Source: a virus
Taxonomy: Duplodnaviria; Heunggongvirae; Uroviricota; Caudoviricetes
IMG/VR virus record: IMGVR_UViG_3300047557_002576
Length of the DNA: 20,621 nucleotides
Strand: one strand, 5' to 3'
The notes under the pieces are model-generated. The model had not been told where the DNA came from. It was given only the letters and a program-made list of their open reading frames with translations, and made no database searches. This document shows positions 614 through 17,373 of this stretch, one piece after another. Every line of letters begins with the position of its first letter. Position 1 is the stretch's first letter. A program made the position numbers and the translations under genes.

Positions 614-3600
614 ATTGTTCTTTATAATTAATACTTGCTTGTATTATACCAGTTTCCCCAGAATCAATTTTTTTTGCGGTTATAAAGAATGCCTCCAGAT
701 TATTATTATCGGGTGTTATGACAGTTCTATCTGGACCAAATATTTTTCTCAAATCAATTATATTTGTGGAATTTGCTCCAACATATAATGTATCTTTTTC
801 CAAATATGGTCTCAATTCTTGTTGATTTTGATTATCAATTAAAGCAGAAGATAACCTATAATTATCTTTAAAGTTAGTAGGAGCAGATCCTAATTTATCT
901 GCTTTTCCATTTGCATCTGTAATTTCGGTATTTTCATACACATACCATCTTGGAGAAATTGTTCTTTGATTATCTCCTATAGTTTCTCTTACTGAAATGT
1001 TGTTGATTTGGGCATTATCTTGTAATTTTGCAACAAGATAAAGTGGGAACGGATTATAATTAAAAATTTTAGTTGAATCTACATCTCCATTCGTTGATTT
1101 TATATTTACAGGTCTAAGTGCAAGAATAAATGGTGAACTAAAATTACTACCACTCGGAATAAGATTCAATGTTTCACTAATTTCAATATATGAATATTGA
1201 GTTGTAACCCCGCTTACAATTTGACTGTAAGTACTTACAACTCCTACAAACTTTGAATTATATGTAGTAATTCCAGAAACACTTTGTATTGCAATTTGTC
1301 CATTATTATAGTCATATGTTGGAAATTGTCCCTGAATCTGTAAATAATACTTTCCTTCACTATCACCTGTTTTTGGATTAATATTATACTCACGTATACC
1401 ATTAATTCCAATTGGATTTGAAACTGATACTGTAAGTTTGCAACAATGTCCTCCCGCAGGATTTGCTAGTGTTGGTATTCTATAATCAATTCCCATAGGG
1501 ATTGATGGTTGCCTGGGAGTCCACGCTTCATTAATTTCAACACCAGATTCATTTATATCTTGTCTAGATTGTCTATGCATTCCATAAAGAATATTTTCGT
1601 TTGGCAAAACAGTATTGGTAGTATCATTAATTATAAACCCATTCAAAATATCTGGTTCACTTATATCTGGTTGATTATTTGTAACACCTATTAAAAAGTC
1701 TGCAAAATGTCCATATTCATCACCCGCACCAGGATTCACAAATTGTATTTCTATTTTTGATCCTGTAAATTTAAAGTCGGATGCTGCATATGAATTGAAA
1801 TTACTTAGTCTTACTGGATATGGATATGCCCCATTTGAAATAGTTGTTGTTATTCCAGTAAATCTATCAAGAACTTTTGATCCACCAAGATTTCTATTGA
1901 CGTTTCTGTTTGCCCCTCTTACAACTGCAGATTGTCCCGCTCCAGTAACAGGATCGGGATTTACAATATCGTAAATATATGCATTGTAGATTGATGGTGC
2001 TATAATTTTCGCCCCAATATCACTAGAACTAAAATCTGTTCCAATAGCAGCAATTGTGTTGGAATTTAAAAATTGTATTTCTAAAATTCTACCACTTTCC
2101 GTAGTTGCCAAACCTGGAGTATAGACATGTCCAAATCCAGGGCAAGCCGAACAAGAAACAATTTTAATTTCAGATAGAGAATCTGATGATAAATTCAATT
2201 CTGTTGGAAAAATTATTTTTTTATTTTGAATTCCAATCCCAGCATTATTAAAAATAAAATCTTTAGGTTTGATTCCTATTAAAGTTTTATTTTTTGTAGT
2301 ATTAATTCCAACTTGCCTAGAACTTGCAGAATAAATTTGTGTTGTTCCCTCATCTCCACCATCAATATAATAAGATGCACCATACTTGTAAACATAATAA
2401 GGAACTCTTACATCAGCAGTATTTGGAATATTAACTGAATATTTGAATCTAAAATAAGAATCTCTTAAACATGGTTGATCTAATGAATTTTCAATTACTA
2501 AAGTATGTAATACAACCCATCTTGCATCACCATTATCTGTTGGAATATAGGCATAAAATCTTGCACCAATAGCACCATACCAACCAAATTCAATTTTATA
2601 CATTGTAACTTTATCGATATTCAAAGAATATCCCGATGGACCATTTCCAGTTAATGGATCTCCATTAAATTTATCTCTAGATATTACAACTGTATAATAT
2701 TGATTAGGATCAAAAGGATCTCCACTTGTTTGTAATGTTTGATCATCACTAGTTAATTTATTTCTGGTAAGAACAGATGGTGATAATGGAATTGTACTTC
2801 TTCTTACAATAGAAAATATATTTTGAGAATCAACTCTAAAAACATATTGATCTGTTGGGTTTGAAATGCCCCATTCTAAAGCAACACCAGCAACTCTAAC
2901 AGGAGTTGCTCTTACACCAAATGTAAATCCACTAATTCTGCCCGGTTGATATCGGAATACTTTTCTTGATTGTAAATAAACATATCTTTGACTTTCATTA
3001 GAATATCCAGGTCTCGTTGTATCCCGTGTAAATGTAGACCCAATAATATTTTGTACATTACTTACTCCAAAAGTTGTTCCAGTTACAGGATCTGTAAGAT
3101 TATTAGTTAAAATATCTTTCCATGTTTCTGTCCATATATCTATTTGAGCAAATGCTGTAGTAATACCAGCAACATATGCAACGTCATCATCATCTAAAGT
3201 TGCAAAAGATTTTGATAAGAATTTTTGCTTCCAGGTAGAAGGATATCCAGATCCAGCTCCAGTATCATAATAATCGTAAAGTTTATTTCCAGCATCAATA
3301 AAATTTATATATTGGTCAAACAAAGTTTTATTGTATAAACCTATTTTTTGAAATTCTGGTCCAAATGGATATGTATATGGAGTTGGAAATGCTGTAATTT
3401 TTATACCAGATTCTTGAGTTTCTTCAGTTATTTCCCCCTGATATCTTGGACCATAAAATTCACTTTCTCTATTTTCCCAAGATGCAAATGTATTTGATGC
3501 ACGAAAAACATAATATTCAAAGTCATCATTGTCTAAACCATAAGAAGAAACGTTTGAAAATAAACTTAATTGAACTTCTTGTCTATCTATACCAAGTAAA

Positions 3601-15920: not shown

Positions 15921-16004
15921 TGTCACCTGCGGGACTCGAACCCGCAAGGGCTTCCGCCCGACGAATTTTAAGTTCGTTTCGTAGACCAATTCCGACAAGG
16001 TGAC
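15921..16004 (-). tRNA. trnL: tRNA-Leu(UAA), CCA not encoded
   Basis: Acceptor GTCACCT/AGGTGAC, A73, D-loop GGAATTGGT, anticodon arm ACGAA-CT TAA AA-TTCGT, long variable arm GGGC-GGAA-GCCC, T-arm GCGGG-TTCGAGT-CCCGC. Confidence 0.97.
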
Positions 16005-16013
16005 GATAAGACT

Positions 16014-16042
16014 ATTATAACTCAAAGAATTATAATAGTCAA
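16014..16042 (-). promoter_or_regulatory. sigma70-type promoter for tRNA-Leu
   Basis: TTGACT (16042-16037), 17-nt spacer, TATAAT (16019-16014). Confidence 0.85.
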
Positions 16043-16665
16043 GTGGTGCTGGGCAAATAGTATTTTGAAATAAACCTATTAACTTGGGTCCTTGAAACCC
16101 CCCAGTCATTAGCAATTTTAGTCCTTATTCCCCATTTTGTCAAGTCAACTCCTTTTAAGTATTCAATTCTATTTTTATATTGTTCTTTAAATGTATCCAT
16201 ATATTCATCCCAACTTCTACCATACTTTTTACTTTTTTTCTTTTTAACTTTTCCCTTTACCCAACCATCAGGTAATGTGTCTATTTTTAATATTCTTTTA
16301 TTTTGTACCCCATTATTAATCCACATAGATTGGGACATATATTTTCCCGCTTTTTTCCCACCCTTTGACGATGCTTTTCTTTTTTCTTCTTTTGTTAGGG
16401 AAAACAATCCAGTTCCTTTCTCATAACATTTTTTTCCAGCAATACTCATAATCTCTTTAATAATTTCTTCTTTTGATATTTGAGATGATAATCCTTTATA
16501 TGCGATATAATCTTCTTTATTATTCCATAAACGCCAATTACAATAGTGAAACATAGTATGACAAGTTCTAGATATTGTAACTAAATTATCAAAATCATCT
16601 GTCCCTCCCATATATCTTGGAAGAATATGATGCTTATCAAATAACCCTTCTTTTTTACAACTCAT
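16039..16665 (-). CDS. HNH homing-type endonuclease, 208 aa
   Basis: N-terminal KHHILPRYMGGTDDFDNLVTISRTCHTMFH HNH motif, basic linker, WINNG..K.I...PDGW.KG module, and C-terminal HTH-like KIANDWGVSRTQVNRFI. Free-standing between tRNA genes. Confidence 0.88.
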   Translation of the reverse strand: MSCKKEGLFDKHHILPRYMGGTDDFDNLVTISRTCHTMFHYCNWRLWNNKEDYIAYKGLSSQISKEEIIKEIMSIAGKKCYEKGTGLFSLTKEEKRKASSKGGKKAGKYMSQSMWINNGVQNKRILKIDTLPDGWVKGKVKKKKSKKYGRSWDEYMDTFKEQYKNRIEYLKGVDLTKWGIRTKIANDWGVSRTQVNRFISKYYLPSTT

Positions 16666-16712: not shown

Positions 16713-16783
16713 TAGGCGGACGGGGAATTGAACCCCGAATGAGCCCTTATAAGGAGCCTCTTTTACCATTAAAGTACCCGCCC
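16713..16783 (-). tRNA. trnI: tRNA-Ile(UAU), canonical cloverleaf, CCA not encoded
   Basis: GGGCGGG TA CTTT-AATGGTA-AAAG A GGCTC-CT TAT AA-GGGCT CATT CGGGG-TTCAATT-CCCCG TCCGCCT A. Carries C4-G69, U12-A23, C29-G41, A37, A38 and A73, the E. coli IleRS determinants. Confidence 0.93.
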
Positions 16784-16816
16784 ATTCGCTATTCGCAAAT
16801 AGAGAATAGCGAATAG
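16784..16816. repeat. Heptamer-based inverted repeat filling the spacer between the two UAU RNAs
   Basis: 11-bp perfect IR ATTCGCTATTC (16784-16794) / GAATAGCGAAT (16804-16814). On the minus strand it reads CTATTCG CTATTCT CTATTTG CGAATAG CGAAT. Confidence 0.85.
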
Positions 16817-16901
16817 TCGCCCAGGGTATCGAACCCTGCCAAAGGCCCTAATCTGGGGCAAAGGGATTATAAGTCCCCTCTGAACACCTGTTCTGACGAC
16901 C
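16814..16901 (-). tRNA. Atypical tRNA-like RNA with UAU anticodon, long variable region and minimal D-arm (amino-acid identity unknown)
   Basis: Acceptor GGTCGTC/GGCGACT plus A73; D-arm GAAC-AGGT-GTTC; extended anticodon stem GAGGGGA-CT TAT AA-TCCCTTT; 21-nt variable region; T-arm CAGGG-TTCGATA-CCCTG. Lies directly downstream of a perfect sigma70 promoter. Confidence 0.75.
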
Positions 16902-16918
16902 AATAAAAATCCAAATCA

Positions 16919-16947
16919 ATTATAGAGGATTTGGAACTCTTTGTCAA
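16919..16947 (-). promoter_or_regulatory. Perfect-consensus sigma70 promoter for the UAU RNA pair
   Basis: TTGACA (16947-16942), 17-nt spacer, TATAAT (16924-16919). Confidence 0.9.
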
Positions 16948-17126
16948 CAACCTTCTTCGTGATCCGTGTGTATTCGTATCAGGTCGTCAACTTCTTTATG
17001 TTCACCATAAGGAATTAACATAGCATTACCGTGTTCGCTCTTAATGAGGAAGGACTCGCCTCCCTCAACACGGTTCATAATAGCATAAAAGTCTGCTTGT
17101 AGTTCTTCAATCGTGAGTGTTTTCAT
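16944..17126 (-). CDS. Small Phd/YefM antitoxin-like protein, 60 aa
   Basis: MKTLTIEELQADFYAIMNRVEGGESFLIKSEHGNAMLIP follows the Phd/YefM N-terminal pattern (M+T+xxxE......++.RVE.GE.+.I...G....L+P), with an acidic C-terminal tail. Judged by eye. Confidence 0.6.
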   Translation of the reverse strand: MKTLTIEELQADFYAIMNRVEGGESFLIKSEHGNAMLIPYGEHKEVDDLIRIHTDHEEGC

Positions 17127-17127
17127 T

Positions 17128-17319
17128 TTAGAAAGGATTTGAATAAAATAGGAAATCTTCTTTAACTTGTGTCCTTACAACTTCAAGGACATTCATAAAT
17201 TGGTCTACGGTTTCACATTCTACCACCTTTTCAGTTCCTTCGCTAGAGTAAAGATAAAACTTACGAGCAAGTGTATCAACCACGCAACGGGTTAGGAACT
17301 CTTCGGTTTCAGCGGGCAT
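17128..17319 (-). CDS. Hypothetical early/middle phage protein, 63 aa
   Basis: ORF 25 nt downstream of a perfect sigma70 promoter; its stop is 1 nt from the next ATG. Confidence 0.8.
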   Translation of the reverse strand: MPAETEEFLTRCVVDTLARKFYLYSSEGTEKVVECETVDQFMNVLEVVRTQVKEDFLFYSNPF

Positions 17320-17344: not shown

Positions 17345-17373
17345 ATTATAGGGCATCTGGGTTGGGGTGTCAA
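17345..17373 (-). promoter_or_regulatory. Perfect-consensus sigma70 promoter heading the island
   Basis: TTGACA (17373-17368), 17-nt spacer, TATAAT (17350-17345). Confidence 0.9.

Follow-up and report, generated by a model that had tools for sequence, protein, structure and literature searches.

Here, we report an unusual transfer RNA (tRNA) gene on a stretch of viral DNA of 20,621 nucleotides (nt), the IMG/VR record IMGVR_UViG_3300047557_002576, which is referred to below as the window. The window comes from a T4-like cyanomyovirus of 33% G+C, and its baseplate hub shares 64% identity with the hub of S-SRM01, a freshwater Synechococcus phage. The gene, located at 16814-16901 on the minus strand, joins the isoleucine (Ile) anticodon UAU to a long extra arm, and its product is probably a working phage elongator tRNA that reads AUA as isoleucine. 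Judged by the compensatory changes among its relatives, it is a real and well-conserved cyanophage tRNA gene, whose fold is under selection. On the sequence evidence, the genes of its family take an ordinary place among the others in phage tRNA arrays.

Structure of the element

The element and its arms are located as follows.

16814..16901, minus strand: long-armed tRNA(UAU) of 88 nt, with G1 at 16901 and A73 at 16814 (103.4 bits with the family model R1; also called by ARAGORN and supported by covariation)
16882..16893, minus strand: D arm, a stem of 4 base pairs (bp), GAAC/GUUC, with the 4-nt loop AGGU; one A stands before the anticodon stem
16860..16880, minus strand: anticodon arm, a 7-bp stem GAGGGGA/UCCCUUU with the loop CUUAUAA
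16869..16871, minus strand: anticodon UAU, invariant across the members found
16845..16859, minus strand: extra (variable) arm, the hairpin GCCC-CAGAUUA-GGGC with a 4-bp stem and a central GAU at 16851-16853
16839..16844, minus strand: conserved linker CUUUGG, 3' of the extra arm; arm and linker together make 21 nt
16822..16838, minus strand: T arm, normal, with a 5-bp stem (CAGGG-UUCGAUA-CCCUG)

The acceptor stem has 7 bp (GGUCGUC/GGCGACU), among them G1.U72, C4-G69 and U6.G67, and the discriminator base is A73. CCA is not encoded at this locus, where the trailer begins with U. A lone A8 (16894) bridges the acceptor and D stems, a place at which tRNAs normally hold positions 8 and 9. The anticodon loop has the standard 7 nt, with both U33 and A37 present. 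The single-sequence fold of the element is 2.8 standard deviations stabler than the folds of shuffled sequences.

An earlier note on this DNA, made from the letters alone, had pictured an 88-nt, non-canonical yet intact tRNA-like gene behind a perfect sigma70 promoter, with a D arm and an anticodon stem recalling the selenocysteine tRNA (tRNA-Sec) and the allo-tRNAs. Every structural detail listed there is present on the minus strand at 16814-16901, the promoter ahead of it matches at 12 of 12 positions (16947-16919, minus strand), and the 4-nt D loop and the long anticodon stem were both confirmed. The poor scores with standard models that the note had expected were also obtained, no Rfam family matching at its threshold. 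With the general tRNA model of Rfam (RF00005), the window element falls below the gathering threshold (29 bits) and the homologue in S-SRM01 reaches 28.8 bits. The top Rfam match of the window element is tRNA-Sec (RF01852), with 30.5 bits against a threshold of 47. ARAGORN calls the element as tRNA-Ile(tat) at 16813-16902. Finally, the search for homologues that the note had proposed returned many of them, with compensatory changes that support the stems.

A Y-shaped fold, in which AGAG would pair with the CUUU of the linker and two equal 4-bp hairpins would remain, was considered and rejected, since it is less stable by about 5 kcal/mol in every one of 60 members. Covariation is uninformative on this fold, as both partner segments (AGAG and CUUU) are invariant.

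Covariation and sequence conservation

The alignment comprises 88 distinct sequences from three subfamilies (an earlier set consisted of the first 60 sequences), with 30 pairs and 2590 cells. Standard pairs are present in 99.7% of these cells, compared with 79% in shuffles and 37-50% with the partners slid. Changes on both sides were found at 23 of the 30 pairs, and all five helices are supported. Covariation thereby extends to the acceptor, D, anticodon and T arms, that is, to the cloverleaf by which tRNAs in general are recognized. Two tertiary pairs change in step as well: G19:C56, formed by the second G of the D loop and C56 of the T loop, becomes A:U in 3 distinct sequences, and T54:A58 (U:A) becomes A:U in 7. 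These covarying pairs therefore match the expectation for a true tRNA elbow.

Two pairs of the D stem covary between subfamilies (A-U/C-G to C-G/U-A), and so do four of the 5 pairs of the T stem. In the anticodon stem, the four loop-proximal pairs covary and the three distal ones (G.U, A-U, G.U) are invariant; covariation is silent on these outer pairs because they never vary. The acceptor pair 1:72 is weak (G.U in 76 of 88 sequences, A-U in 7), and pair 2:71 is C-G in 73 sequences and G-C in 15. The seventh acceptor pair is G-C in 64 sequences and C-G in 23, while the first T-stem pair is G-C in 63, C-G in 18, U-A in 5 and A-U in 2. At position -1, 46 of 113 copies have A, G or C, so that the base there shows no consistent pairing with A73. 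Since the seventh acceptor and first T-stem pairs covary and base -1 does not pair consistently with A73, the acceptor/T branch is of the 7/5 type. An acceptor stem of 8 bp (8/5 or 8/4, as in tRNA-Sec or allo-tRNAs), which the pair U-1:A73 in the single-sequence fold would imply, was rejected on the same grounds, and that eighth pair appears to be an accident of the window copy.

The stem of the extra arm covaries at 3-4 pairs and takes the forms GCCC/GGGC, CCGC/GCGG, CCUC/GAGG, GCAC/GUGC and GCCG/CGGC. Its loop CAGAUUA is nearly invariant across the three subfamilies and a Sinorhizobium phage. The rare variants of this loop are CGGAUUA, CCGAUUA, CAGAUCA, UAGAUGG and one CGGACUG, and the central GAU is kept in all members but one, which has GAC (L299). 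Scans aimed at loop variants yielded this GAC member, but the matches were mostly subfamily 3 shifted by one base and not true variants.

Sequence conservation also extends to position 8, which is A and rarely U or C, to GG in the D loop, to GAG/UUU at the top of the anticodon stem and to the linker CUU(U)GR, and A73 is invariant (88 of 88 sequences). The anticodon loop reads YUUAUAA in all aligned members, the exceptions at position 38 being S-CBWM1, a variant of S-CRM01 and the Sinorhizobium phage Phosso. When contigs were collected by the D arm alone, so that the anticodon was free to vary, UAU was found in 55 of 55. The scaffold of subfamily 2 with another base at position 34, 35 or 36 gave no match in three scans of 2.9 million viral contigs. 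The anticodon is thus fixed in this family.

Distribution of the family

Members were collected by exact-pattern scans of the 2.9 million viral contigs of IMG/VR, and the contig counts of the family are lower bounds. The family occurs on more than 300 viral contigs. The D-arm motif of subfamily 1 was found on at least 55 IMG/VR contigs; subfamily 2, which has the compensating D stem GACU/AGUC, on more than 80; and subfamily 3, with a length of 89 nt and a 5-bp extra-arm stem, on at least about 88. A covariance model, R1, was built from the 88 distinct sequences of all three subfamilies. It gives members 47-107 bits, the window copy 103 bits and ordinary tRNAs no more than 36 bits. In a sample of 151 Actinomycetota genomes, which is no proof of absence, R1 found only ordinary tRNA-Leu(UAA), at 42 bits.

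Among isolates, the family gene is present but unannotated in S-SRM01, S-SKS1, S-CBWM1 and S-CRM01, and it is annotated as tRNA-Ile(tat) in the Sinorhizobium phage Phosso (469 kb). S-CRM01 (L002, NC_015569) has a disrupted copy and a divergent intact one. At 2494-3160, the family copy is split past the D arm by a cassette of about 590 bp, which contains an open reading frame (ORF) for an HNH endonuclease and the divergent intact copy (L002:3008-3096, 47 bits with R1). The leftover 3' half, comprising the extra arm, T arm and acceptor, lies at about 3113-3160. The insertion looks like a homing cassette that carries its own replacement tRNA.

A near-identity search of GenBank phages gave no match, and relatives surfaced only in distant mode. 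In the genomes of 185,579 prokaryote species, the D-arm pattern of subfamily 1 gave only 5 chance matches. Neither this pattern nor R1 thus revealed a family copy in the cellular genomes sampled, which does not prove that there is none. No published description of the family was found in the literature on allo-tRNAs, nev-tRNAs, cyanophage tRNAs and UAU, isoleucyl-tRNA synthetase (IleRS) or TilS, the supplementary sequences of Mukai et al. lying outside this comparison.

Two further RNA genes were seen in carriers of the family. In Phosso, whose set comprises 59 tRNAs, ARAGORN reports a tRNA with the anticodon CUA, of the amber-reading type and labelled Pyl (L306:6732-6807). At the start of another viral contig with a long-armed tRNA, it reports a gene resembling transfer-messenger RNA, with the tag peptide ANDNAFDLPLAA (L008:60-445).

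AUA as an isoleucine codon

The place of the family in phage tRNA sets suggests what it decodes. In 64 of the 68 phage arrays with at least 15 tRNAs, the long-armed tRNA is the sole UAU tRNA, and its typical companions are one GAU and two CAU tRNAs. No second UAU tRNA was found in S-SRM01, S-SKS1 or Phosso among the Rfam tRNA matches scanned with ARAGORN. In these sets, the family fills the AUA slot. The tRNA set of S-SRM01 is small and consists almost entirely of U34 tRNAs for A-ending codons, which would fit the need of an AT-rich phage in a host of presumably higher G+C. CCA stands directly after A73 in 88 of 88 subfamily-3 loci among the matches listed, and CC does so in 27 of 113 loci of subfamilies 1 and 2, though the DNA is AT-rich. 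The features of UAU-type tRNA-Ile, namely UAU, A37, A38 and A73, are all found in the family, apart from the exceptions at position 38.

AUA makes up 17 per 1000 codons in the window. At conserved columns, AUA codons of the window align with ATT or ATC of its relatives, as at residues 21, 47, 188, 202 and 227 of the hub. The same is true of residues 102 and 123 of p187 and residues 373 and 1283 of the fibre. Because AUA aligns with ATT/ATC at conserved positions, the phage appears to use it as an isoleucine codon, and a reassignment of AUA was rejected for the same alignments. Indirectly, they indicate that AUA is read as isoleucine in the carrier genome, while not saying by which tRNA.

Comparison with known tRNAs

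Functionally, the nearest known tRNAs are class I tRNA-Ile(UAU) species independent of TilS, such as Mycoplasma mobile tRNA-Ile2(UAU) (PMC3575796) and the tilS-bypass tRNA of Bacillus subtilis (PMC3919564); the canonical phage tRNA-Ile(UAU) at 16713-16783 of the window is of this kind too. Like them, the family has UAU in a 7-nt loop as well as A73, and would presumably read AUA as isoleucine without lysidine. However, in the class I molecules the variable loop has 5 nt, positions 8 and 9 form a linker of two bases, the D loop is normal and the anticodon stem has 5 bp. In the family, a 15-nt extra hairpin is joined to a 6-nt linker, a single base stands at position 8, the D loop has 4 nt and the anticodon stem reaches 7 bp.

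With the allo-tRNAs (PMC5389517; reviewed in PMC7609411), the family has in common its long extra arm, a D arm that ends in a tetraloop, an anticodon stem of more than the usual length, an anticodon outside those of Leu, Ser and Tyr, and a match to tRNA-Sec that stays below the threshold; UAU is among the predominant anticodons of the (8/4) allo-tRNAs (PMC5389517; PMC7609411). Allo-tRNAs are, however, defined by an 8/4 or 9/3 branch (12 bp), mostly with G73 or U73 (serine-type) and a long D stem, while the family has a 7/5 branch, A73 and a D stem of 4 bp. Membership among the allo-tRNAs was rejected on both the branch and the discriminator base. The 4-nt D loop, the anticodon stem of more than 5 bp and the long extra arm also recall tRNA-Sec (RF01852), but the 8/5 branch, the 6-bp D stem, the anticodon UCA and G73 of that tRNA are all absent. 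With 30.5 bits for the window element against 47, a 7/5 branch, UAU and A73, the family was not assigned to tRNA-Sec either. To judge from the aligned members, its core is built like those of tRNA-Sec and the allo-tRNAs, but on a 7/5 frame.

A class II shape combined with UAU is also known from the nematode nev-tRNA-Ile(UAU) (PMC3333845, PMC4300185). The nev-tRNAs are nevertheless eukaryotic tRNAs built on a leucine-type body, and in vitro they are charged with leucine; nothing points to homology with them, and the codon use described above favours isoleucine. With the class II tRNAs for Leu, Ser and Tyr, the family has in common a stem-loop between the anticodon and T arms, and A73 is found in tRNA-Leu and tRNA-Tyr as well. 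It is not a member of this group, from which it differs in its isoleucine anticodon, its minimal D arm, the sequence-conserved extra loop CAGAUUA and the 6-nt linker. To our knowledge, an extra-arm loop conserved in sequence is not a general feature of class II tRNAs. Membership in class II tRNA-Leu or tRNA-Ser was rejected for the UAU anticodon, A73 instead of G73, the variable pair 2:71 (tRNA-Ser needs G2-C71) and the 4-nt D loop.

Other departures from the usual assignment of extra arms were seen as well. In two tRNAs with class I anticodons, a GAAA tetraloop closes an extra hairpin arm: a tRNA-Asn(GUU) of 89 nt in S-CBWM1 (L001:580-668) and a tRNA-Thr(UGU) of 85 nt at L027:6285-6369. In addition, many arrays contain tRNAs of 73-76 nt with Leu anticodons (UAA, CAA, GAG) that are without the long arm expected of bacterial tRNA-Leu, for example at L169:4161-4233 (S-SRM01) and L006:2906-2978. 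In the tRNA-Leu(UAA) of the window, this arm is present.

Genomic context

The neighbouring features of the window are listed below.

16919..16947, minus strand: sigma-70-type promoter, TTGACA-17-TATAAT, agreeing at 12 of 12 positions and lying about 17 nt ahead of G1
16785..16813, minus strand: hairpin spacer of 29 nt between the two UAU tRNAs, with the 11-bp stem ATTCGCTATTC/GAATAGCGAAT
16713..16783, minus strand: canonical class I tRNA-Ile(UAU) (Rfam tRNA 55.7 bits; ARAGORN)
16039..16665, minus strand: HNH homing endonuclease ORF inside the tRNA cluster (Pfam HNH and PHROG homing-endonuclease families)
15921..16004, minus strand: class II tRNA-Leu(UAA), third tRNA of the cluster (Rfam tRNA 54.3 bits; ARAGORN)
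16944..17126, minus strand: Phd/YefM-like ORF of 60 aa (phrog_375, E = 1.7e-8; Pfam PF02604 below cut-off)
17128..17319, minus strand: DUF7294 ORF, upstream of the tRNA unit together with the Phd/YefM-like ORF
17345..17373, minus strand: second sigma-70 promoter (12 of 12 matches), ahead of the DUF7294 and Phd/YefM-like ORFs

The -10 box of the tRNA promoter is bracketed by the inverted repeat CCAAATC/GATTTGG. The whole promoter module, ACGAAGAAGGTT-TTGACA-...-TATAAT at 16919-16953 on the minus strand, recurs upstream of the tRNA in L007, L013, L016, L037, L141 and L142, and modules of the same kind were found in about 30 of 109 distinct sequences upstream of family members. The spacer hairpin of about 29 nt (stem GCTATTCG/CGAATAGC) is kept with compensatory variants in L005, L014, L016, L018, L029, L031 and L038. 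Other lineages have a different hairpin, which begins two bases past A73. The spacer hairpin may be a processing signal.

The canonical tRNA-Ile(UAU) and its long-armed neighbour have in common G1.U72, A73 and the loop CUUAUAA. The window, S-SRM01 and S-SKS1 share the gene order baseplate hub, small ORFs (DUF7294, Phd/YefM-like), long-armed tRNA, next tRNA, tRNA-Leu(UAA), small ORF and tail fibre. The Phd/YefM-like ORF is directly upstream of the tRNA unit and has no toxin partner; the syntenic ORF of S-SKS1 is annotated as a Phd-like antitoxin. By its distribution, this ORF is a neighbour in the cyanophage lineage only, that is, part of the context, and a functional link to the tRNA would be putative at most.

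Among 134 loci of subfamilies 1 and 2, 84 are followed downstream by a tRNA(CAU) as the next tRNA and 5 by a canonical tRNA-Ile(UAU). The two genes often lie just 3-8 nt or about 30 nt apart, and gaps of 400-740 nt contain an HNH endonuclease gene. The short gaps to the next tRNA therefore imply a tandem precursor. Subfamily 3 has no tandem linkage, no fixed neighbour and no antitoxin link. Because the linkage is absent there, it is taken as a lineage trait that lies outside the mechanism. The neighbouring tRNA(CAU) is of the non-initiator type (G1-C72, no run of three G-C pairs) and is a candidate for either Met or lysidine-type Ile2. The canonical UAU tRNA that stands in its place in the window is a separate gene, and the arrays usually contain a second, typical Met-like CAU tRNA as well. 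In some tRNA(CAU) neighbours, the D arm is complementary to the extra loop of the long-armed tRNA, a match that was judged to be chance, since that D arm varies.

Weighing the explanations

Several points weigh against the element being an AUA-decoding isoleucine tRNA. A canonical tRNA-Ile(UAU) is also present in the window, so the long-armed copy is at least partly redundant there, and the array counts given above were drawn from excerpts of no more than 15 kb. Leu codons stand opposite AUA at several positions (hub 210, fibre 360 and 1079, p101 residue 34). They also stand opposite AUU/AUC, though less often, and a low level of Ile-to-Leu ambiguity at AUA may be compatible with the alignments. 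Outside the anticodon loop, the identity pairs of E. coli IleRS are C4-G69, U12-A23 and C29-G41, and these pairs are not conserved in the family. Furthermore, isoleucine charging is not to be presumed, because E. coli IleRS charges UAU tRNA poorly (PMC3575796).

One way in which charging could be secured is through the extra arm as a second, anticodon-like hairpin, since its loop CAGAUUA agrees with CUGAUAA, the loop of tRNA-Ile(GAU), at 5 of 7 bases. The arm would then offer GAU to the host IleRS while the UAU loop decodes, so that the charging and decoding signals would be placed on separate arms. The persistence of the loop across three subfamilies and across cyanobacterial and Sinorhizobium phages, while its stem covaries, is consistent with such a division, as is the tie of the scaffold to UAU. 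We nevertheless regard it as unlikely: L299, one of the members, carries GAC instead, the arm has no counterpart of U33 and A37, the canonical neighbour tRNA-Ile(UAU) manages without such an arm, and the Y-shaped fold that would equalize both hairpins is disfavoured in all 60 members by the 5 kcal/mol or so mentioned above.

The sequence-conserved extra loop, which suggests a binding partner, could also belong to a decoy or sponge, a tRNA look-alike that soaks up a host factor by which isoleucine tRNAs are attacked or bound, with the UAU and GAU loops as bait. The proposed targets are an anticodon nuclease, a tRNA-acetylating toxin or another tRNA-directed defence, and both the position of the cyanophage-lineage copy directly after the Phd/YefM-like ORF and its apparent redundancy beside the canonical tRNA-Ile(UAU) of the window would suit this role. 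A decoy is, however, quite improbable for a tRNA that is the sole UAU species in most arrays, and subfamily 3 always encodes CCA and is free of a fixed neighbour or antitoxin link. The elbow pairs and the standard anticodon loop are retained as well, though a decoy could need these too, and we know of no tRNA-Ile-specific nuclease in these hosts. Mistranslation or recoding, in which leucyl-tRNA synthetase (LeuRS) or seryl-tRNA synthetase (SerRS) would charge the element and Leu or Ser would be inserted at AUA, had been put forward in the earlier note and now seems very unlikely to us. E. coli LeuRS uses A14/A15 and the geometry of the D loop, and the 4-nt D loop provides neither; for SerRS, G73 is missing and pair 2:71 is variable. 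AUA swaps with AUU/AUC at strictly conserved isoleucine columns, no likeness to the phage's own tRNA-Leu(UAA) is evident by eye, and, as the sole UAU tRNA of most arrays, such a tRNA would miscode about 1.7% of all codons. Recoding would draw on the long extra arm together with A73, the discriminator of bacterial tRNA-Leu, on the single base by which UAU differs from the Leu anticodon UAA, on the AUA positions that align with Leu codons, and on the leucylation of nematode nev-tRNAs in vitro (PMC3333845, PMC4300185).

It is extremely improbable that the element is a non-translational tRNA-like RNA, whether it helps to process the tandem tRNA that follows, acts in regulation or is kept by homing endonucleases as a landing site. 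Such roles would accord with the tight tandem to tRNA(CAU) or tRNA-Ile(UAU) in 89 of the 134 subfamily-1 and -2 loci (gaps of 3-8 or about 30 nt), with the HNH endonuclease genes that recur beside the family gene and with the S-CRM01 copy split by an HNH cassette. But the tandem linkage is absent in subfamily 3, and the invariant anticodon, A73 and an encoded CCA would be superfluous. The cassette of S-CRM01 moreover brings its own intact copy (47 bits with R1), which suggests that the tRNA function itself is needed. The idea of a new class of tRNA-mimic non-coding RNA, also raised in the earlier note, was likewise abandoned for an ordinary array member that is usually the only UAU tRNA and that, in one subfamily, always has CCA encoded.

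If the element does decode AUA as isoleucine, its transcription would start at an early-type promoter of its own, and the next tRNA would usually be part of the same tandem precursor. The precursor would be trimmed like other tRNAs, with CCA added by the host here and encoded in one subfamily. The product would adopt an L-shaped fold with an unusual core, in which a single linker base and a D loop of 4 nt are combined with an anticodon stem of 7 bp and the extra hairpin. Isoleucine would most probably be attached by the host IleRS, and the tRNA would give an AT-rich phage (33% G+C), with close relatives that infect Synechococcus, the means to decode AUA.

Implications

Routine annotation mostly misses this family, which is unannotated in 4 of the 5 isolate genomes that carry it. 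If the function proposed here is true, phage tRNA inventories and codon-adaptation analyses undercount AUA decoders. The family would also be a natural test of how IleRS recognizes UAU tRNAs and of the role of a sequence-conserved extra arm. Direct testing is feasible, since cultured hosts and phages carrying the family exist (S-SRM01, S-SKS1, S-CBWM1, Phosso). An isoleucine tRNA could then bear a long extra arm, and hundreds of large phages would decode AUA with a tRNA architecture that, according to textbooks, belongs only to Leu, Ser, Tyr and Sec.

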